Origin: a virus
Lineage: Duplodnaviria > Caudoviricetes
Direction: 5' to 3' (one strand)
Length of the DNA stretch: 64,000 bases
Virus record (IMG/VR): IMGVR_UViG_3300049324_000034
Coordinates: 57,539 to 121,538 of that record
This document shows positions 4,885 through 64,000 of this stretch, one piece after another. The notes under the pieces are model-generated. The model saw only the letters and a list, made by a program, of their open reading frames with translations. It ran no database searches and had not been told where the DNA came from. Position 1 is the stretch's first letter. Each line of letters begins with the position of its first letter. A program made the position numbers and the translations under genes.

Positions 4885-7800
4885 GTGGCGACACGGCTCT
4901 ATTTCAACAACACCACAGCCCCCTATACCCCGCCCACCATTCGGGGCACCTGGAGCACTACCGCTAGCGCAGTCACAAAGTTGCTGGGCGCGGTACACGA
5001 CACGGGTGCGCCAGCCACGGTCGCCATCGCTGAAGCGGTCACCACTAACCCCTACAACGTGCTGTGGGGAAGATGGGTCTCCGCACCAGCGGTAGCCGCA
5101 GGGAACCTCTCCGGCGTCGTCTCCTGGGCTGTCGGTGTCAAGGAATCGAGCCTTAGCGCCAACGATTTCCTGCGCATTCACATTTACGTCACTACCGGTA
5201 GCACCGACACCCCGCGCGGCACGCTGCTCACCAACCTCACCGACACGGTCGAGTTCACCACCACTGCCGCTGGCATCTCCGCCCTCGACAAAGCGATCAG
5301 CACCGTGGCCGTGCAGGTCGGTGACCGTGTCGTCGTAGAGATCGGCTACCAGGCGCAGAACACCGTCACCACGCCGTTCACCGGCACCATGAACTACGGC
5401 GGCAACCAGTTCTTTCGGGACCTGCTCGCCAACGGCGCCGGAGCACGCGGCACCGACCCCGCTACCCGCTTTGGCTGGGTGCAGTTCTCCGACCCGAACA
5501 ACGTGCTCGCCGCCGCCCCGGTCGCCGCCGCGAACCGCTGTTGGAATCCGTCAGCGAAGACCTTCCAGGACTTCTGGTCAACGGCGGCCGGGACCACGGT
5601 CACCTCACCCCCTCAGACCGGCTTCAGCCGCACCACCGGGCTGCACGTCGTCGTCGGAACCGCCGGGGACCCGAACGTCAACCTCCCCGTAGTCCCGGCA
5701 GGCGTCGGGGAGACGTGGTCGATCTCCGTCCAGGCCAAGGGGTCGATCACTGCCGGGAACACCACAACCTGTTGGCTGAACTTCACTGACGCAAACGGGA
5801 GCTTCCTCACCCCGAACCCTTCCCAGAACATCACGCTATCCAGCACTGCACAAACAATCACGTTCAACAATTACACCGCGCCCGCCAACACCGCCTATGT
5901 CGGAATGTCCATCGAGGGCACCGCTGCGGTCGGCGACACTTTCGACGTCACCTGCGCCTATTACGACATTGTCAGTGCCGTACCGGGCTATAACGATGGC
6001 GATTCCACGCTGTGGTCCTGGGACAATGGCCTCACTGACGGTGACTCGGCATCGCGCGCCCTGCCGGCGACCAACGCCAGCGCACCCACGGCCACCGCGA
6101 CAGCAGCGGCGAACAACCCGAGCACCACTGTCGCTCCCGCCGCCCCGAGCGCCACCAGCGCCGCCAGTGCGCCGGCCCCGGCCGCCAGCGTCCGAGCCAA
6201 CCCCACGACAGCGGCCAGCGCGGCCAGCGCCCCCGTCCCGTCGGTGTCAGTGGCCGCCAATGCGATCACTGCCACCGCTGTAGGCAGCGCCCCCGCCCCG
6301 TCAGTGGCGGTGCTGGGCAACGCGGTCACCTCGACCGCAGTGGGCACCGCCCCGGCCCCCAGCGTGTCGACCAGTGTCAGCGCCACAGCCGCCACCGCCA
6401 CGGCCACGGCGGCAGCCCTGGGCGCCACCGGCAAGGTCTCGCCCACACCGGGGGTCGCCACTACGGCGGGCAGCGCCCCAACCCCGTCGGTGGCGGTCAC
6501 CGCACCCGCCGGGCTCGCCACCGTCACGGGCAGCGCGCCGCCACCGGCCGCCAGCGTGGCCCCCAGTCCGTCCAGCGCCACGGTCCTGGGCACCGCCCCG
6601 GCACCGGGGGCCAGTGCGACCTCCGGCCCGGCCACGGCCACCGCAGTGGTCAGTGCGCCGGCACCGGGGGTCAGCGTCGCCCCCACGGCCCCGACCGCGA
6701 CCAGTGCGGGCAGCGCACCCGGCGTCACTGGCAAGACCAGCCCGAGCGCCAGCGTCGCCACCGCAGTGGGCAGCGCGCCGGCCCCGGCCGCCAGCGTGGC
6801 CCCCTGCCCCACTACCGCGACCAGTGCGGGCAGTGCACCGCCACCAGTGGCCAGCGTGGCGGTCACCCCCGGCACGGCGACCAGTGCGGGCAGTGCCCCC
6901 AACGCGGCCGGGGTGGTCGCCGTGGTTGGGCTCGCCGCCACCGCCACCGCAGCGGGCAGCGCGCCAGCGCCCACACCCCGGATCCAGCCGACCGCGCCGG
7001 CTGCGATCGCCAGCGGTAGCGCCCCGACGCCGGCCGCACAGATCGCCCCCACCGCCCCCACAGCGACAGCGGCGGGTACAGCGCCGGAACCCGGCGCCAG
7101 CTCGGCAGCGGGCCCCACAACGGCCACCGTGACCGCCACCGCGCCCACCCCATCCACCGACGTCACCACCGGGGCGCCCACCGCCACCGCAACGGGCACC
7201 GCCCCGGACGCTGTGGGGTCCAGTGCGTCGCACACCGACGCCACCCCGGCCACTGCCACCGCCACCGCCCTGGCGCCCGACGCGTCGGTCACGGTCGCCT
7301 CTACACCGGGCACGGCCCTCGCCGCCGGTAGCGCCTTGAATACCGCTACTGAAGTAGCGGTCAGCGCACCAACAGCGGCCAGCGCGGGCAGTGCGCCGGC
7401 ACCGACGGGCCGTGTCGAAGTCTTCGCTGGCGCGGCCACCGCCACCGCAGCGGGCAGCGCCCCGGCGCCCACCCCGGCCATAACCTCCAGCCCGGCCACC
7501 GCCACCGCAGCGGGCAGCGCCCCCGCGCCGTTCGGTGCGGTCGACGGCCAGAACGTCAACGCCACCGCCCAAACCGCCATCGCGGTGGGCAGTGCACCCA
7601 TGCCGGGCGTGTCCATCACGTCAGCGGTGTTCGCCGCCACTGCCACCGCTGCGGGCAGCGCGCCGGCACCCACGAGCCGGGTGACGGCTAGTGCGGGCAC
7701 CGCCACCGCCACCGCCACGGCGCTCTCGCCGACGGTGCGGGTCGCCCCGCAGGCCAGTCCAGCGGTCAGCGTGGGCACCGCGCCAGGGGTCATCGGATCC

Positions 7801-8184
7801 ACCGCCGCCCTGACTTTCGCCCAAACCGCGACCGCCACCGGCAGTGCCCCGACACCGTCCCCGTCAGTGGCGGCCAACGCGGGGCTCGCCGCTGTGACCG
7901 GGGTGGCGGCCCGGCCGTCGGGCCGGGTGGTGGTCGGCGCTCCAACAGCTGTCGCGGTGGGCAGTGCCCCGGCACCGTTCCCGTCGGTGACCTTCGTCTG
8001 GCCGCCCAGCGCGGGCGCCCTGGGGGTCACTGAGCTGGCCGCCGGGGTGCTCGTGCTGGCGACGATTGCCGCCGCTACCGTGGAAGTCGCGGTCACCGCA
8101 GACAGTGAAGATGATCTAGTTGGGGTGGCCAGTGCGAATACCGCAGTCATTGGGGTGGCTACCGGCACGCCGGGAACCGAGTAG
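4885..8184 (+). CDS. large tail-fibre / minor tail protein with Ala-Thr-Pro repeats
   Basis: 1099 aa; beta-rich N-terminal domains, then about 30 units resembling TATAAGSAPAP. Confidence 0.75.
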   Translation: MATRLYFNNTTAPYTPPTIRGTWSTTASAVTKLLGAVHDTGAPATVAIAEAVTTNPYNVLWGRWVSAPAVAAGNLSGVVSWAVGVKESSLSANDFLRIHIYVTTGSTDTPRGTLLTNLTDTVEFTTTAAGISALDKAISTVAVQVGDRVVVEIGYQAQNTVTTPFTGTMNYGGNQFFRDLLANGAGARGTDPATRFGWVQFSDPNNVLAAAPVAAANRCWNPSAKTFQDFWSTAAGTTVTSPPQTGFSRTTGLHVVVGTAGDPNVNLPVVPAGVGETWSISVQAKGSITAGNTTTCWLNFTDANGSFLTPNPSQNITLSSTAQTITFNNYTAPANTAYVGMSIEGTAAVGDTFDVTCAYYDIVSAVPGYNDGDSTLWSWDNGLTDGDSASRALPATNASAPTATATAAANNPSTTVAPAAPSATSAASAPAPAASVRANPTTAASAASAPVPSVSVAANAITATAVGSAPAPSVAVLGNAVTSTAVGTAPAPSVSTSVSATAATATATAAALGATGKVSPTPGVATTAGSAPTPSVAVTAPAGLATVTGSAPPPAASVAPSPSSATVLGTAPAPGASATSGPATATAVVSAPAPGVSVAPTAPTATSAGSAPGVTGKTSPSASVATAVGSAPAPAASVAPCPTTATSAGSAPPPVASVAVTPGTATSAGSAPNAAGVVAVVGLAATATAAGSAPAPTPRIQPTAPAAIASGSAPTPAAQIAPTAPTATAAGTAPEPGASSAAGPTTATVTATAPTPSTDVTTGAPTATATGTAPDAVGSSASHTDATPATATATALAPDASVTVASTPGTALAAGSALNTATEVAVSAPTAASAGSAPAPTGRVEVFAGAATATAAGSAPAPTPAITSSPATATAAGSAPAPFGAVDGQNVNATAQTAIAVGSAPMPGVSITSAVFAATATAAGSAPAPTSRVTASAGTATATATALSPTVRVAPQASPAVSVGTAPGVIGSTAALTFAQTATATGSAPTPSPSVAANAGLAAVTGVAARPSGRVVVGAPTAVAVGSAPAPFPSVTFVWPPSAGALGVTELAAGVLVLATIAAATVEVAVTADSEDDLVGVASANTAVIGVATGTPGTE
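6070..7990 (+). repeat. degenerate ~60-bp coding tandem repeat
   Basis: Recurrent GCCACCGCAGCGGGCAGCGCCCCGGC-like units. Confidence 0.8.
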
Positions 8185-37731: not shown

Positions 37732-38009
37732 TGAGTGCCGAGCGGGACGCGCTGGTCAGGCTGGTCGGCCTGACCCACGACGCAACTAGGCACGTCTCCC
37801 ACCGCACCAACGTGGTGCAGCTCTACCGCGACGCCAGCGACGTAGCCGAGCGGCGGTTGCCGGGACCTCTCGGGGTTGCCGTGGCCGCCGTGCTAGCTAC
37901 CGCTGCCGAGCGCCGTCGGCTGTCCGGGATCGGCGGGTCGCTCGGCGCGGATCAGCCGATGATGGCGCTGGCCGTCGCCGTGTTGGAGATCATCCCTGAT
38001 GACCTGTAA
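37731..38009 (+). CDS. hypothetical protein
   Basis: TGATG overlap. Confidence 0.65.
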   Translation: MSAERDALVRLVGLTHDATRHVSHRTNVVQLYRDASDVAERRLPGPLGVAVAAVLATAAERRRLSGIGGSLGADQPMMALAVAVLEIIPDDL

Positions 38010-51420: not shown

Positions 51421-52086
51421 ATGACCGCCGCGCTCGCCACCCCTGACGACACCGAATCCGTCTCTACCCTGCTCGTGGGATTCGCCATCAACGCCGTCAT
51501 CGCGGGCGCGAAACTCACCCTCGGTGTCCTCACCGGGTCCGCGTCGATGCTCGCCGAAGCCGCCCACTCCGCCGTCGACATGCTGTCGGAGGTCTTCCTG
51601 CTCACCGGGGCGCGGCACTCCCGCACCTGGTCCAAGGGCTCCTACTTCTGGGGCCTGCTCGCGTGCGTGAACCTGTTCCTGTCCGGCGCCGTCTGGGCCG
51701 CTTATGAGGGCATCCGGTCACTGGTCGGCACCGAGGTCGCCGACTCCCTGGGCTGGGTCAGCCTCGCCGTGCTCGCCGGGTCGGCCGCCATGGAGTCAGT
51801 GTCGTGGCGCACCGCGTACCGCACCCTGAACGCCCAACGGGGCGACACCCCGTGGCGGATCTACCTGCGGACCTGCCCGAACGTCGCGGTCCTGACCCTG
51901 TTCTTTGAGGACACTGCCGACATCATCGGCTGCTTCCTGGCCGGGACCGGTGTCGCCCTGGGCCTGCTAGTCACCGGGACGGCACTGTGGGACGGCGTCG
52001 CATCCCTGCTGATCTCCGCACTGCTCACCGGCATGGCCTACGTGCTCGGCAGCCGCAACGCCAAACTGCTCACCGCCACAGCCTGA
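51421..52086 (+). CDS. cation diffusion facilitator (CDF) transporter lacking the C-terminal domain
   Basis: TGSASMLAEAAHSAVD, FFEDTAD, WDGVASLLI; six TM segments. Confidence 0.85.
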   Translation: MTAALATPDDTESVSTLLVGFAINAVIAGAKLTLGVLTGSASMLAEAAHSAVDMLSEVFLLTGARHSRTWSKGSYFWGLLACVNLFLSGAVWAAYEGIRSLVGTEVADSLGWVSLAVLAGSAAMESVSWRTAYRTLNAQRGDTPWRIYLRTCPNVAVLTLFFEDTADIIGCFLAGTGVALGLLVTGTALWDGVASLLISALLTGMAYVLGSRNAKLLTATA

Positions 52087-59551: not shown

Positions 59552-60094
59552 GTGGCCCTCGAAATCAGCATCTGCGCTCTACTCGCCTGCCCCCGCGTGG
59601 AGCCCTCCGCCTGGCAAACCCGGTTCTCCCAGACCGAACTGGTCGACCCGGACCCGAAGGTGGCCAAAGAGTTCTTAGAGTTGGAGATCGACACTGAGGG
59701 CCTGGAGTACGGGGAGACCGACACGGACGTGCTGGTCTCCACCATCCACCCCGGCCACATCGAGAACAGTCTTCTGATCACTCACGCCGACATGGAGGTT
59801 TACGACGGACAGGAGGATGTGTGGGAACTGGGCACCTGGACGGTGTGCGGCATCTTCGAGGACAACGGGCAGTGCTATTCCGATGTCTGGGCCGCCCACG
59901 GACCCCTGGCCGCCTACGGCACCGCGTGGAACCACTGGAACAAGCGGGGCCGCAACCTGTGGATCGCCGGGGCGCACCCCGGTGATGAGGCCCGCACCCT
60001 GTGGTCCCCGACGTTCGCCGACCCCACCTGCACGACAGAGGACGCCATGGCGCAGCGTCTGGCCGAACTGATCCCTGGGAGGCAGACCCAATGA
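59552..60094 (+). CDS. hypothetical acidic protein
   Basis: High GC3 ORF. Confidence 0.65.
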   Translation: MALEISICALLACPRVEPSAWQTRFSQTELVDPDPKVAKEFLELEIDTEGLEYGETDTDVLVSTIHPGHIENSLLITHADMEVYDGQEDVWELGTWTVCGIFEDNGQCYSDVWAAHGPLAAYGTAWNHWNKRGRNLWIAGAHPGDEARTLWSPTFADPTCTTEDAMAQRLAELIPGRQTQ

Positions 60095-60483
60095 TCACGA
60101 TCACTCAACCGCCCCCGCTGGCCGAAGCCGACCGCTATCTACTGGCGATTTTGCAGCAGGTTCGGTACGCGCTGCGCCGGTCGCCGACATTCCAACCGCA
60201 CGACGCGGGGTACTGCGATGTTGTGCGCGCGTGGCGCGCACTGACCAACCAGCTGTTCGGCCGTGACATCGCCCACGCCTACCGGGTCGAAGCGGAGAGA
60301 TCCGGCGACGTCGACGCGGTGCTCGCCACCGCGTTCGAGTTGACCGCCCACGAGGTGGCGAAAGACGACGAACGCTGGCCCGACGTGGTGCTGCGCAACG
60401 CTCGCCCCACCACGGATCGGTTCGAGCTGTTGGCGGCTCGCGCGCTGGAGATCCGGCAGGAGGGTGCACCCGTACGGCCGTAG
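60091..60483 (+). CDS. hypothetical protein
   Basis: GGAGG RBS; ATGA overlap. Confidence 0.7.
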   Translation: MITITQPPPLAEADRYLLAILQQVRYALRRSPTFQPHDAGYCDVVRAWRALTNQLFGRDIAHAYRVEAERSGDVDAVLATAFELTAHEVAKDDERWPDVVLRNARPTTDRFELLAARALEIRQEGAPVRP

Positions 60484-60502
60484 CACCCACCACCTAGCTA
60501 CC

Positions 60503-60525
60503 TGGTATGGTAGGACCTGTTCCGG
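60503..60525 (+). promoter_or_regulatory. extended -10 promoter plus GTTCCGG
   Basis: TGG TATGGT-N7-GTTCCGG. Confidence 0.8.
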
Positions 60526-60551
60526 TCCCCCTGAGTGAGAGAAGTCCTGTC

Positions 60552-61061
60552 ATGGCGCAGACCGCCATCCCCACCGACTACTGCCCCGACTGCCGCCTCA
60601 TCAACGGCCTACCCCCCACCACCGACCCCGTCGGCACCTACCAGTCCTGCCCTAGCTGCAACCCCGACACACCCATCCTGTGCTGCCCCGAGCACCGCTC
60701 CGCCGCCCTGGCCAACCTCGACCTGCCCGCCAACACCTACTACCACTGCCCCCTCTGCGACGACGAATGGGTCAACGGCCCCGACAACCCTCCGTGGCGC
60801 GCCTACGACTACGGCATGGCCCTGCTCGCCCTGACCTGGCTGACCTTCCAGTGCGGCGTGTACTTCGTCTTCCTGCTCGGTTTCGTCCTCGTCCTGCACC
60901 AGAACTACGGCCACACCCCCGACGACGCGGTCATGCCGAGCGCCTTCTACGCGTTCCTGGTATTCATTCTGTGGATCACCGTGCTGTTCCCCGCCCTGTG
61001 GTGGGCTGTCGACGAGACCTGCCGCCGCGTGTGGCGCGGCATCTGGGGACAGGCACTGTGA
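60552..61061 (+). CDS. Zn-finger membrane protein
   Basis: Four CxxC-like motifs followed by two TM segments. Confidence 0.7.
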   Translation: MAQTAIPTDYCPDCRLINGLPPTTDPVGTYQSCPSCNPDTPILCCPEHRSAALANLDLPANTYYHCPLCDDEWVNGPDNPPWRAYDYGMALLALTWLTFQCGVYFVFLLGFVLVLHQNYGHTPDDAVMPSAFYAFLVFILWITVLFPALWWAVDETCRRVWRGIWGQAL

Positions 61062-61303
61062 GCCGCCGACCCGGCAGCGTGCCCCTTACCGGCATCCTGC
61101 GCGCCTGGCTCACCATCTACGTCCTGATCTGGCCCGCCCTACTCGTCGTCGCCTTCGACTGGGCCTTCGGCCCCCAATCCACGGCCACCTCCGTGGCGTT
61201 CCTCATCGCCGTCGGATGGGCACTGTGGCGGTGGCGGCAGGTCGCCAAACGCATCCACACCGTTCGCGTCAAAACACCCCGACGCAGAAGGGCACACCGA
61301 TGA
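61058..61303 (+). CDS. membrane protein
   Basis: Two TM segments; GTGA overlap. Confidence 0.65.
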   Translation: MSRRPGSVPLTGILRAWLTIYVLIWPALLVVAFDWAFGPQSTATSVAFLIAVGWALWRWRQVAKRIHTVRVKTPRRRRAHR

Positions 61304-61509
61304 GCCGCCCCACCACACCCCCCGACATGCTGCGTCGGCTCGCCGACATCGGTGCCATCGACGACTACCAGCTCGACGACGGGCACCACCGAGTCACCGT
61401 CAAAGGTGACCCGTCCTGGCTGACCGCCGACGAGGTCAACGTGTTCCTACTCGGCTTCGGCGCCGCCATCGACCACTCCAACCGCCGGATTGGAGACCTG
61501 CTTACATGA
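61300..61509 (+). CDS. hypothetical protein
   Basis: ATGA overlap. Confidence 0.65.
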   Translation: MSRPTTPPDMLRRLADIGAIDDYQLDDGHHRVTVKGDPSWLTADEVNVFLLGFGAAIDHSNRRIGDLLT

Positions 61510-61694
61510 ACGGCCTCGACGGACTCCTCGCCTACATGCTCGCCCAAGCAGTGGGAGTGATCCTGCTGGCGCTGGCCATCATCGGCGGGGTCGCGCTGTT
61601 CCACCACCACATCGCCTACTGGGCCGCCTTCCTGATCGCCTTCGCCGTCGTCTACGGCGGCATCTTCATCTTCGAGGGGGACTGGATCGAATGA
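61506..61694 (+). CDS. membrane protein
   Basis: Two TM segments. Confidence 0.65.
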   Translation: MNGLDGLLAYMLAQAVGVILLALAIIGGVALFHHHIAYWAAFLIAFAVVYGGIFIFEGDWIE

Positions 61695-62113
61695 GCAGGC
61701 GTCTACTTCTAGGCGCCTGCCTGGCGCTCGCCCTGGCCGGTGCCGCCTGCGAGGTCCCAGCGAGCACGACCGGCCCGCACTGCACAGCGACCCTCGAAAA
61801 CGACCGCACTCGCACCGTGTGCACCACCGTGGAAGGCGAGCCCGACCCGCGCACCGTCGAGGACTGCAGGCTCAACATCACTGGCGAGCACACGGTCTGC
61901 GTCGTGACCCGCCCCGGACAGGTGCCGGTCACGACGTACCACTGCGGGATCAACGACGTGTTCATGCGCCACGTCTACGGCCTGGAGCCACAAGCGCACA
62001 ACGCCGACGCCGCTGACGCCTACTGCACACACCAGGTGCAGGCCCACATCGCGGAGCAGGAGCAGCAGACCGGCGGCCCGTGCCCGCTGATCTGCATGCG
62101 GCCCGACCAGTAA
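61691..62113 (+). CDS. putative Cys-rich lipoprotein
   Basis: MSRRLLLGACLALALAGAAC signal/lipobox. Confidence 0.7.
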   Translation: MSRRLLLGACLALALAGAACEVPASTTGPHCTATLENDRTRTVCTTVEGEPDPRTVEDCRLNITGEHTVCVVTRPGQVPVTTYHCGINDVFMRHVYGLEPQAHNADAADAYCTHQVQAHIAEQEQQTGGPCPLICMRPDQ

Positions 62114-62137
62114 CACCGGACACCCGGTCAGCGACAT
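62110..62137 (+). promoter_or_regulatory. SigD-like ECF promoter
   Basis: GTAAC-N17-CGACAT-N7-GTCCCG; GTTCCGG at 62158. Confidence 0.7.
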
Positions 62138-62182
62138 ACCGGGTGTCCCGCTTCACCGTTCCGGCCCCCAGGAGTACCCGAA

Positions 62183-62347
62183 ATGATCATCTACGCGATG
62201 CTGCGGCTGTTCGTCGCCCTAGCTGGCATCGTCGCCACCGTGTGCGTCTTCAGCGCCGTCGCCTTCGCCTACCTACTCGCCCTGCCCATCGCTGGCATCG
62301 TCTACTACGCCACCGGCCGCTGGATCCTGAAACGGAGCACCCGATGA
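62183..62347 (+). CDS. 54-aa membrane protein
   Basis: AGGAG RBS; two TM segments; ATGA coupling to next gene. Confidence 0.7.
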   Translation: MIIYAMLRLFVALAGIVATVCVFSAVAFAYLLALPIAGIVYYATGRWILKRSTR

Positions 62348-63306
62348 GACGCCACCGCAAGCCGAACCCACTGTTCGACCCCGACCACGAGCCCAGCGAT
62401 ATGGCCGCGATCCGGGCCGACGACGCCCTACTCGACAGCCTCCACGCCGCCCAGCCGCCCACAGGTGCGGTCGACCCGTTCCGCGAGGAACTTGCCAAGC
62501 TGCGGGACTCCGCACGCGGTGACGAACCCGAACTGGTCACCGTCGACACCGCCCAGCACGCCATCCGGTGCGGCCGGCGAGCACGGAGGCGCCGCCGCTG
62601 GTTCCCGTGGGTGTTCGTCATCGGTTGTGTGGTGGCCGGCGTCCTTCTCCTGGCGCTCACCGGGTGCGGGGTGGGCGCTATCGACTCCCTGGCGGTCCCC
62701 GCCCCGACAACCGCACAGCCTGACCCCGGTGGGCTTCCGTCACTGCCGCCGGAGGAGGCGCGGGCCCTGATGGCACCCATCGGCGACGGCGGCCCGAAGG
62801 TCATCATCGCGCCGACCGCGCACGTCACCGGCACCTACCCGACCCGCTGCGTGCGGGGCGCGGCCGATGACCCGCGACTGCCAGTGATGGCGTGCACGCC
62901 GGGCTCGGTGCGCAGCGACATCACCGACGACACGAAAGCCGCCACGATCTGCAATCCGCACTGGTCGACGAGCACGATCCGGGCCCCGAAGTCTGAGACG
63001 GACCGGCTGAAAACGATCGCGATGCAGGCTTACGGGGTGCCCGCGTCGGCGCGGGCCACGACGGAGCTGGATCACGACGAGCCGCTGGAGCTGGGTGGCA
63101 GCAACGACGTGAGCAACTTCTGGGCGGAGCGATCCGATCTGTCGGGGCAGGGGTTCCGCAACTCGAAAGACGACGTTGAGAATCGCCTGCATGCGGCGGT
63201 GTGTGGCCGCATCCCCGGTATGCGCCCGGTGTCGTTGCGCGACGCTCAGATCGCGATCGCGCGGGATTGGGTGACGGCTGAAGCGGTGCTGCACGTCGCC
63301 GCCTAG
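62344..63306 (+). CDS. RsdA-like anti-sigma-D N-terminal domain plus TM plus extracytoplasmic HNH-like domain
   Basis: DMAAIRADDALLDSL...EELAKLRD...PELVTVDTAQHAI...RRARRRRR, TM, then ELDHDEPLELGGSNDVSNFW...KDDVENRLHAAVC. Confidence 0.7.
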   Translation: MRRHRKPNPLFDPDHEPSDMAAIRADDALLDSLHAAQPPTGAVDPFREELAKLRDSARGDEPELVTVDTAQHAIRCGRRARRRRRWFPWVFVIGCVVAGVLLLALTGCGVGAIDSLAVPAPTTAQPDPGGLPSLPPEEARALMAPIGDGGPKVIIAPTAHVTGTYPTRCVRGAADDPRLPVMACTPGSVRSDITDDTKAATICNPHWSTSTIRAPKSETDRLKTIAMQAYGVPASARATTELDHDEPLELGGSNDVSNFWAERSDLSGQGFRNSKDDVENRLHAAVCGRIPGMRPVSLRDAQIAIARDWVTAEAVLHVAA

Positions 63307-63325
63307 TTGCGCATCCCCGCAACTC

Positions 63326-63348
63326 TGGTAGGGTGGGTGTTGTTCCGG
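63326..63348 (+). promoter_or_regulatory. extended -10 promoter plus GTTCCGG
   Basis: TGG TAGGGT-N7-GTTCCGG. Confidence 0.8.
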
Positions 63349-63367
63349 TCCCGACCTGGAGGTCACC

Positions 63368-63640
63368 ATGACCGCGCCGCACATCACCACCCGCTCCCGC
63401 CACTACTCCCCCACACTGCGGGCCGAACTCAACGCCTACAGTGCTCAAGACGCAGCCGAGAACGCCCGCCTATGGCGCGAGATCGCCGCCGACGCCATCG
63501 GCGTCCCCCGCGACTGGGCCATCGCCGCCTACTGGCAGTCCATCGCCGACCGCAAATCTCGCTGCATCTGTGGATCTGTTCGCCCCTGGATGCCCACGAT
63601 CACCAATCCCGACTGCCCGCAGCATCACTCCAACATCTGA
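63368..63640 (+). CDS. hypothetical protein
   Basis: GGAGG RBS; CICG...CPQH. Confidence 0.7.
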   Translation: MTAPHITTRSRHYSPTLRAELNAYSAQDAAENARLWREIAADAIGVPRDWAIAAYWQSIADRKSRCICGSVRPWMPTITNPDCPQHHSNI

Positions 63641-63672
63641 CCGCCCGTTCCGGCACCCAGGAGACCCGCGCC

Positions 63673-63900
63673 ATGCACATCTACCACCTCGCCCGCAACG
63701 AAATCATCCACCGCGAAGAGAACGCCGCACTCGTCGTCATCGCCATCGACGAGTACGCCGCCCGTGAGCGCGCCGCCGACCTCTGCGGTCCCGAAGGCGT
63801 CGCCCCATGGCTGGAGCGCGCCGACTGCGTCCAGATCGGTGTTGCCTTGCCCGAGTTCGACGCTCACGGCTTCGCCTGCGTCGACTGCCTCGAAGCCTGA
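63673..63900 (+). CDS. hypothetical protein
   Basis: AGGAG RBS; GTTCCGG at 63647. Confidence 0.7.
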   Translation: MHIYHLARNEIIHREENAALVVIAIDEYAARERAADLCGPEGVAPWLERADCVQIGVALPEFDAHGFACVDCLEA

Positions 63901-63941
63901 CCCCCGACCACCCGTTCCGGCACCCCAGGAGAGACACCGTC

Positions 63942-64000
63942 ATGATCCCCATCAGCCACGAAGACTTCACGGCCCTCAAGGCCCTCGACGACGCCCGCCG
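63942..64000 (+). CDS. hypothetical protein, 3'-truncated
   Basis: AGGAG RBS; GTTCCGG at 63914. Confidence 0.6.
   Translation, partial: MIPISHEDFTALKALDDAR

Follow-up and report, generated by a model that had tools for sequence, protein, structure and literature searches.

A probable RsdA-family membrane anti-sigma factor encoded by a phage, fused to a His-Me-like exported domain behind an ECF-type promoter-like site

Can a phage carry a membrane-bound anti-sigma factor of the extracytoplasmic function (ECF) kind, and if so, whose sigma factor would it hold? The question is raised by a two-gene operon at 62110-63306 of a 64-kb stretch of DNA (the window), which corresponds to bases 57539-121538 of the 121,538-bp IMG/VR virus record IMGVR_UViG_3300049324_000034, whose completeness CheckV estimates at 100%. 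The second gene of this operon, an open reading frame (ORF) at 62344-63306 on the plus strand, stop codon included, encodes a protein of 320 aa (P0001), which an initial annotation had read as an anti-SigD factor of the RsdA type carrying an HNH-like outside domain. Our analysis makes it probable that this is an RsdA-family membrane anti-sigma factor, fused to an exported His-Me-like domain and placed behind an ECF-type promoter. As for its partner, we favour, with a probability of about 0.45, an ECF sigma factor encoded by the phage itself, with which it would make up a phage-internal feedback module.

T4 AsiA, a small soluble phage protein, acts on the housekeeping sigma factor of the host, binding sigma region 4 to redirect transcription, and to our knowledge the known phage anti-sigma factors are all small soluble proteins directed at housekeeping sigmas. 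Membrane-bound ECF anti-sigma factors, on the other hand, are bacterial signal transducers. In contrast to AsiA, the protein described here belongs to such a bacterial family, as a membrane protein with an exported domain and a predicted capacity for sigma binding. No phage-encoded RsdA-like or ECF anti-sigma factor was described in the literature that we searched, most subscription journals lying outside that search. The parts - an RsdA-type domain, an ECF sigma factor, a lipoprotein signal and a His-Me domain - are known; the combination, and its setting in a phage of lytic type, are new.

The RsdA-like domain, the lipobox and the exported domain

With RsdA (Rv3413c; 3VEP; PF16751) the 320-aa protein shares cytoplasmic DD.LLD.L and ELV.VDTA helices, a basic stretch and a single transmembrane (TM) segment. 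The layout first proposed for it (DMAAIRADDALLDSL...EELAKLRD...PELVTVDTAQHAI, an Arg cluster, one TM segment and ELDHDEPLELGGSNDVSNFW...KDDVENRLH) agrees exactly with the ORF translation. The RsdA-like domain occupies residues ~18-76 (62395-62571, plus strand), as judged from Pfam, a family profile and alignments, with predicted helices at residues 18-35, 45-60 and from 67 onwards. PF16751 (RsdA_SigD_bd) matches residues 19-53 weakly (E 0.056; 14.2 bits, under the gathering cut-off of 26.7). Support from relatives is stronger: among 14 long forms, by which we mean full-length metagenome proteins, 43-88% identical, that combine the RsdA-like extension with the ectodomain, nine match PF16751 at E<=1 and four at E<=0.01, the best at 6.2e-5. 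A profile of the same 14 matches a single real PDB family, chain X of 3VEP (3vep_X, M. tuberculosis Rv3413c/RsdA), with an E-value of 4.4e-4 across residues 9-79 of the 80-residue chain. Compared directly, the 320-aa protein and the RsdA of Amycolatopsis share 39% identity across 79 aa (E 1e-5), and the N-terminus of the former is 37-41% identical to those of four RsdAs from Pseudonocardiaceae, the first helix being almost the same. The earlier assignment of the N-terminus to the RsdA type is thus upheld by the family profile and by the alignments with RsdA, though Pfam taken alone stays below its cut-off, and one residue central to the family is not kept.

That residue is Trp50, a conserved sigma contact whose substitution, W50A, cuts affinity 10-fold (PMC3597663). 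Its equivalent in the 320-aa protein is replaced, by Leu in the HMMER alignment or by Ala in that from MAFFT; it is retained in each of the four bacterial RsdAs compared and in six of the 14 long forms. Elsewhere the domain is better preserved, with D27, L50, A70 and R78 invariant across the long forms, in frame down to 43% identity. When residues 1-110 were searched against 5.8 billion proteins, the only matches were to the protein itself and to three close relatives, and a scan of IMG/VR with RsdA-type N-terminal patterns found only a relative of 120,179 bp (G001), that is, this same lineage. The matches listed by a metagenome scan for long forms were almost only short forms, and a candidate second long-form lineage (L022 and L024) was rejected, the ORF in L024 being an ordinary short lipoprotein.

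The anti-sigma domain is followed by an RRARRRRRW-type basic stretch (residues 77-85) and a hydrophobic segment (86-107), laid out as in bacterial RsdAs; the AlphaFold helix spans residues 67-106. Together with the lipobox L105-T-G-C108, in which the TM helix ends and which the initial annotation lacked, these features, read from the sequence and the predicted helix, cover 62572-62667 on the plus strand. The lipobox is present in every one of the 14 long forms (13 with L[AT]GC, one with VTGC) in the midst of a segment that is otherwise variable; C108 does not vary among the 24 proteins aligned, nor G107 among the 14 long forms. The short forms of the family, for their part, resemble ordinary lipoproteins, with a loose lipobox in 84 of 116 and the Cys at a median position of 20.5.

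Could lipoprotein processing then be linked to sigma release? One can picture a self-cleaving protein whose anti-sigma domain would in effect be part of an outsized lipoprotein signal peptide: Lgt and LspA would act so that the chain is cut at Cys108 and the nuclease-like lipoprotein freed, while membrane proteases would remove the short-lived anti-sigma stub left behind. The sigma factor would thus be inhibited only for a time, clocked by the protein's own secretion, with signal peptidase II in the role of a site-1 protease, possibly within the sigma/anti-sigma circuit of a lytic phage. Such a scheme could be combined with either candidate partner discussed below, and it would fit with the persistence of [LV][AT]GC at the end of the TM segment in all long forms, down to 43% identity, with the lipoprotein character of the short forms, and with the known removal of RsdA by proteolysis. 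We nonetheless consider it unlikely, as the n-region, at 85 residues before the hydrophobic segment, is far from that of a normal, short lipoprotein signal peptide, and the conserved Cys may have been inherited rather than selected.

Beyond the membrane lies the HNH/His-Me-like domain (residues ~151-320; 62794-63303, plus strand), defined by conserved columns and by a structural model. A search with the full-length model was dominated by the long helix at 59-110, and the C-terminal domain was therefore refolded alone, which with 130 sequences gave a predicted local distance difference test (pLDDT) score of 96. Of the 48,161 chains compared with it by VIA-align, 24 reached Z>=2 and 23 of these were His-Me/HNH nucleases, although the best Z was only 3.5 (root-mean-square deviation 3.9, 79 residues aligned); Foldseek returned no row at E<=0.001 for this domain, its weak top rows being HNH DNases. 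The predicted beta-beta-alpha core (240-286) holds E241, D243, H244, N258, N273, K275, D276 and E279, and thus has in common with secreted or lipoprotein HNH/His-Me nucleases (HNH_5, GmrSD_C, colicin-type DNase cores) the pattern ELDH...GGSND..N...KD..E. Across the 130 sequences D243, N258, K275 and E279 never change, and at least 90% retain H244, N273 and D276, all of these residues being present in the 320-aa protein; C169, C184, C203 and C287 are conserved cysteines.

What sets the phage ectodomain apart from those nucleases is that neither a significant structural match nor a Pfam HNH match was obtained for it. The 320-aa protein matches no Pfam HNH family at E<=10; HNH_5 is found in seven of the 130 relatives (best 8.7e-4) and PF01844 in two of the 14 long forms (best E 0.14). 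The HNH-like character first ascribed to the C-terminus therefore stands at the level of motif and, weakly, of fold, and fails at that of a family match. From its conserved residues, we take the ectodomain to be an exported His-Me nuclease-like domain of an unnamed family, probably active.

This family is large: a search of 1.84 billion proteins gave 3156 representatives at E<=0.001, and there are 122 confirmed relatives in IMG/VR contigs, where the short lipoprotein form is common. It would define an unnamed, phage-rich group of probable surface nucleases. A typical member has ~200 aa, and the RsdA-like extension is confined to the 320-aa protein and 13 relatives. An atlas search with the C-terminal domain brought up nothing but unnamed clusters of Actinomycetota; GmrSD_C, the closest cluster with a name (0.78), is a lead only. 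Single members among the 122 IMG/VR relatives (L003-L082) bear Excalibur, DUF3761, YdjM or Endonuclea_NS_2 domains. The outside domain differs from that of the bacterial protein, for the tail of the one Amycolatopsis RsdA read is rich in Pro, Thr and Ala. Rather than as an RsdA with a swapped outside domain, the protein is better described as a member of a widespread lipoprotein-type family of nuclease-like proteins, which many phages carry in its short form, with an RsdA-type domain added before its signal peptide.

If so, might the added domain be a degenerate remnant, no longer an anti-sigma factor at all, and serve only as a cytoplasmic tail or anchor for a phage surface nuclease engaged, for instance, in phage exclusion or the degradation of extracellular DNA? 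The Pfam score below the gathering cut-off and the replaced Trp50 could be read in this way, as could the fact that most of the family, whether viral or among the 3156 representatives, functions without any such domain. We think this improbable, less likely even than self-cleavage: the domain stays in frame in 14 proteins with its four invariant residues, it is found alongside a phage sigma factor, and its promoter is of ECF type.

The GTAAC promoter class and the phage sigma factor

The operon stands behind a promoter-like motif, GTAAC-N17-CGACAT (62110-62137, plus strand; GTAAC at 62110-62114 and CGACAT at 62132-62137), which is kept in G001. This motif had been noted before the operon from the outset, and it proves to belong to a class that is non-random and that fits the published consensus for SigD (ECF40). 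GTAAC-N17-CGAYRT occurs five times in the window, always on the plus strand, where 0.05 would be expected, and none of 100 dinucleotide shuffles reached five. The whole genome contains eight intergenic sites of the form GTAAC-N17-CGA(T/C)(A/G)T that face genes, and for GTAAC-N16/17-CGAT the count is eight against 0.72 expected. All eight intergenic sites have A or G after GTAAC; six read CGAT and two CGAC, the latter including that of the operon, which departs in this way from the consensus. The genes behind them encode a 35-aa TM peptide, a DUF6011 protein, a 92-aa protein, a cation-efflux family membrane protein, a small ORF, the 320-aa operon, an 85-aa membrane protein and a 59-aa secreted peptide.

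Which sigma group would such sites suit? The published consensus is GTAAC(A/G) and GAT for SigD of C. glutamicum (PMC6338062) and GTAAC-N17-18-CGAT for ECF40, the SigD group (PMC12019637). BldN constitutes a separate group, ECF121 (bioRxiv 10.1101/2019.12.11.873521). A BldN-type consensus was derived here from the bldN-rsbN intergenic regions of 68 actinobacterial loci (bases ~4350-5000 of L085-L164): GTAAC-N16/17-CGTT is found in 61 of the 68, followed by C in 50, T in eight and G in three, and none reads CGAT. In both systems the anti-sigma gene appears to lie under its own sigma factor, since rsdA is listed in the C. glutamicum SigD regulon (PMC6338062), and rsbN is reported to have a BldN-dependent promoter (PMC4255298). 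A GTAAC-type ECF promoter before the gene is hence a further trait that the phage protein has in common with RsdA, at least with rsdA of C. glutamicum.

The genome encodes one sigma factor, and it is an ECF sigma. Its gene (G000:C1:9772-10488, in the coordinates of the whole record) lies outside the window, ~10 kb from the 320-aa gene, and Sigma70_r2 and r4_2 exceed their cut-offs at G000:C1:9904-10458. The protein is nearest to BldN (6dxo_A at E 8.8e-40), though it scores 139.9 bits with TIGR02952, under the BldN equivalog cut-off of 206.45; sigma-4 alone matches only BldN, SigD (3vep_D) and one further ECF sigma factor in the PDB at E<=0.01. It is ~50-60% identical to 19 bacterial-type sigmas aligned, of which the named ones come from Pseudonocardiaceae and one Modestobacter, and it belongs to a small phage clade of such sigmas with a common insertion of ~30 residues in the linker. 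The sigma operon itself sits behind a housekeeping-type site, TAGACT-N7-GTTCCGG. In all nine sigmas which we read as the phage clade (P0181-P0189), Asp takes the place of the Met or Leu of bacterial BldN-like sigmas (RFD as against RFM/RFL), and in four (P0181-P0184) the turn leading into the recognition helix is also longer by two inserted residues (sigma-4, P0181 residues ~190-200 and 210-216); to judge from the alignment, these changes may alter anti-sigma or promoter contacts.

In G001, the sigma factor is 96% identical and the long form 87%, with eight motif matches (none for a reversed-pattern control), and the two genes again lie ~10 kb apart, on the same strand and with no terminus between them. 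In G002 and G003, complete or near-complete phages which have the C-terminal domain only, there is no Sigma70_r2 match and there are no motif matches. On a contig of 17.5 kb whose sigma is 58% identical, GTAAC-N16/17-CGAT occurs three times.

Two of the GTAAC sites, those at 38006 and 48745, have GGTAGG.T within the spacer, where, by sequence, two promoter classes may overlap. The gene for the cation-efflux (CDF) membrane protein, at 51421-52086 of the window (PF01545, E 2.8e-21), lies directly behind a GTAAC-N17-CGAC site.

Phage sigma or host SigD as partner

We favour a pairing of the anti-sigma factor with the phage's own sigma because sigma, fusion and promoters occur together, and a phage sigma factor needs promoters in its own genome; an altered partner would also fit since the RsdA contact Trp50 is replaced. 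The phage sigma, a BldN-family derivative with a GTAAC-type sigma-4 and expressed from a housekeeping-type promoter, would switch on the eight promoters. Most of the genes behind these encode small proteins of the membrane or for secretion, the 320-aa anti-sigma factor being one of the products. The latter would then sequester the phage sigma at the membrane, leading to negative feedback or a timed pulse, as with rsdA and rsbN in bacteria. The exported ectodomain, meanwhile, would probably act as a surface nuclease or DNA binder, given its catalytic-type residues, conserved Cys and lipobox.

The nearest precedent on the sigma side is the BldN-RsbN pair of Streptomyces (6DXO; ECF121): the phage sigma is nearest to BldN, the -35 is GTAAC, and a membrane anti-sigma factor expressed from a promoter of the same class gives feedback. 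The differences lie in the anti-sigma factors (RsbN partners bear DUF5667, for which the 320-aa protein has no match, and do not resemble its N-terminus), in the promoters (CGTT in bacteria, CGAT or CGAC in the phage) and in the linker insertion of ~30 residues in the phage clade. Set against RsdA, whose partner belongs to ECF40, the phage's only sigma factor is BldN-like and not ECF40, and the anti-sigma gene is that of a lytic-type phage, has no sigma gene adjoining, has lost Trp50 and encodes a TM segment ending in a lipobox.

Structure prediction of the phage sigma with residues 1-85 weakly supported a complex, with a score of 0.40 against 0.00 for the best of three controls. The prediction used alignments of our own, and the mark that it passed is reached by 58 of 80 solved complexes and two of 110 mismatched pairs; passing scores at <=0.60, however, were obtained for only seven of the 80 solved complexes and for both of the passing mismatches. 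Between runs, at least 73% of contacts coincide, and the pLDDT of the partner is at least 70.

Several observations weigh against this pairing. The predicted complex may reflect nothing beyond likeness to the solved structures 3VEP and 6DXO. The two genes are ~10 kb apart instead of adjoining, and at eight of eight bacterial loci the gene behind a BldN-like sigma is of the RsbN type (DUF5667) with no PF16751 match; likewise, around 80 BldN-like sigma genes, a hidden Markov model (HMM) of the N-terminal domain had no match within 4 kb at E<=10. A remote homology of RsbN and RsdA, by which the pairing would become canonical, was rejected at the sensitivity of hhalign, where only the TM segment aligns (probability 10%). 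Of five SigD sigma-4 positions that touch Trp50 of RsdA, by a mapping that is our own, three are occupied in the phage sigma by R, H and D. As for the promoters, the -35 fits both the SigD and BldN groups, the two discriminating positions are of the SigD type by sequence, the phage has no CGTT-type (BldN-like) site, and the -10 recognition loop of its sigma is nearly identical to that of bacterial BldN-like sigmas. The co-occurrence of sigma, fusion and promoter class, moreover, is between two closely related phages on the one side and two possibly unrelated ones on the other. Finally, small ORFs beside the sigma gene (region G000:C1:9482-11119; L001:1079-2716) could, from their sequence and position, encode further sigma regulators. 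A 97-aa ORF with four Cys, zinc-ribbon-like, precedes the sigma gene and is translationally coupled to it; it is conserved (66% identity) beside the 58%-identical sigma (L166). Two small helical ORFs without a family come after the sigma gene.

The same promoters raise the possibility first put forward for this locus, in which the target is host SigD (ECF40): the phage anti-sigma factor would bind SigD, be transcribed by the SigD holoenzyme and damp or hijack an envelope-stress regulon, the phage sigma serving elsewhere. All eight phage sites can be counted as the ECF40 type, GTAAC(A/G)-N17-18-CGAT (two reading CGAC), and not as BldN CGTT; the anti-sigma domain is of the RsdA family, with a first helix nearly identical to those of Pseudonocardiaceae. 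Relatives of candidate hosts do have sigD-rsdA: PF16751 proteins are present in four of the five genomes searched (Amycolatopsis, Saccharothrix, Kutzneria and Pseudonocardia, not Streptomyces), and in Amycolatopsis, the one locus read, the PF16751 gene directly follows an ECF sigma gene. ECF-sigma responses (SigX, BldN) are also reported to limit phage spread. We hold a host target to be a strong contender, though less likely than the phage's own sigma. Trp50, which all four bacterial RsdAs and six of the 14 long forms keep, is lost; in complete genomes the long form is seen only together with the phage sigma; and it would be unusual for a phage to carry a sigma gene but no promoter to go with it. 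The remaining probability covers both partners, or something else.

What would follow differs between the two. If the module is phage-internal, it would be a portable transcription module, in which eight envelope-protein promoters are wired to an ECF sigma together with a membrane anti-sigma factor of the RsdA family, and perhaps a model for how new sigma/anti-sigma pairings originate, here from a BldN-type sigma and an RsdA-type partner. If host SigD is the target, the protein would be a phage countermeasure to the envelope-stress response.

The phage genome and the control region of the operon

That the operon is phage-encoded, as originally stated, is confirmed by the virus record and by PHROGs matches within the window to the large terminase, several helicases and parts of a polymerase. 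The DNA has ~67% G+C. Its ends (G000:C1:1-127 and 121412-121538), given in the record as a terminal repeat, are an exact overlap of 127 bp, and because of this we take the genome to be circular or circularly permuted, the overlap being more likely the signature of a circular-contig assembly than a physical terminal repeat. Models of tyrosine integrases and large serine recombinases have no match anywhere in the genome, which suggests a phage of lytic type. Megablast with 60000-64000 and tblastn with the 320-aa protein found no match in 50,697 GenBank phage records, and PHROGs matched neither cistron of the operon at 62183-63306. The sequencing runs that contain 61500-63500 are soil-metagenome DNA contigs, with no RNA dataset among them. 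Elsewhere in the window, at 4885-8184, a 1099-aa ORF with no PHROG match lies in a stretch of 77% G+C.

The neighbours upstream of the operon are small membrane or secreted ORFs, with no sigma gene adjoining, and the GTAAC at 62110 shares bases with the stop codon (TAA, 62111-62113) that ends the preceding ORF. A perfect 11-bp hairpin is predicted within the promoter spacer and -10 (arms 62118-62128 and 62138-62148, plus strand), so placed that CGACAT lies in its loop. Its z-score, over an 81-nt stretch, is only -1.3, and the single arm difference in G001 preserves a G-U pair. On the folding prediction it may be a terminator of the upstream unit that lacks a U-tract; terminator and sigma-70 scans of 61400-63700 found nothing, the hairpin (62118-62148) being missed because it has no T run.

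Downstream of the promoter-like motif come a GTTCCGG leader element (62158-62164, plus strand), 25 nt before the first start codon, and a ribosome-binding site, AGGAG (62170-62174, plus strand). The first cistron (62183-62347, plus strand; P0002) encodes 54 aa with two hydrophobic segments, probably TM, and is conserved in G001; it has no Pfam family match. Its stop codon overlaps the start of the second cistron (62344-63306, plus strand), the fusion protein, in an ATGA. The next unit probably begins at a housekeeping-type promoter-like site, TGGTAGGGT-N7-GTTCCGG (63327-63349, plus strand), and the operon therefore ends at 63306, with two genes. GTTCCGG thus occurs twice around the operon, once in its leader and once, following TGGTAGGGT, where the next unit is predicted to start.

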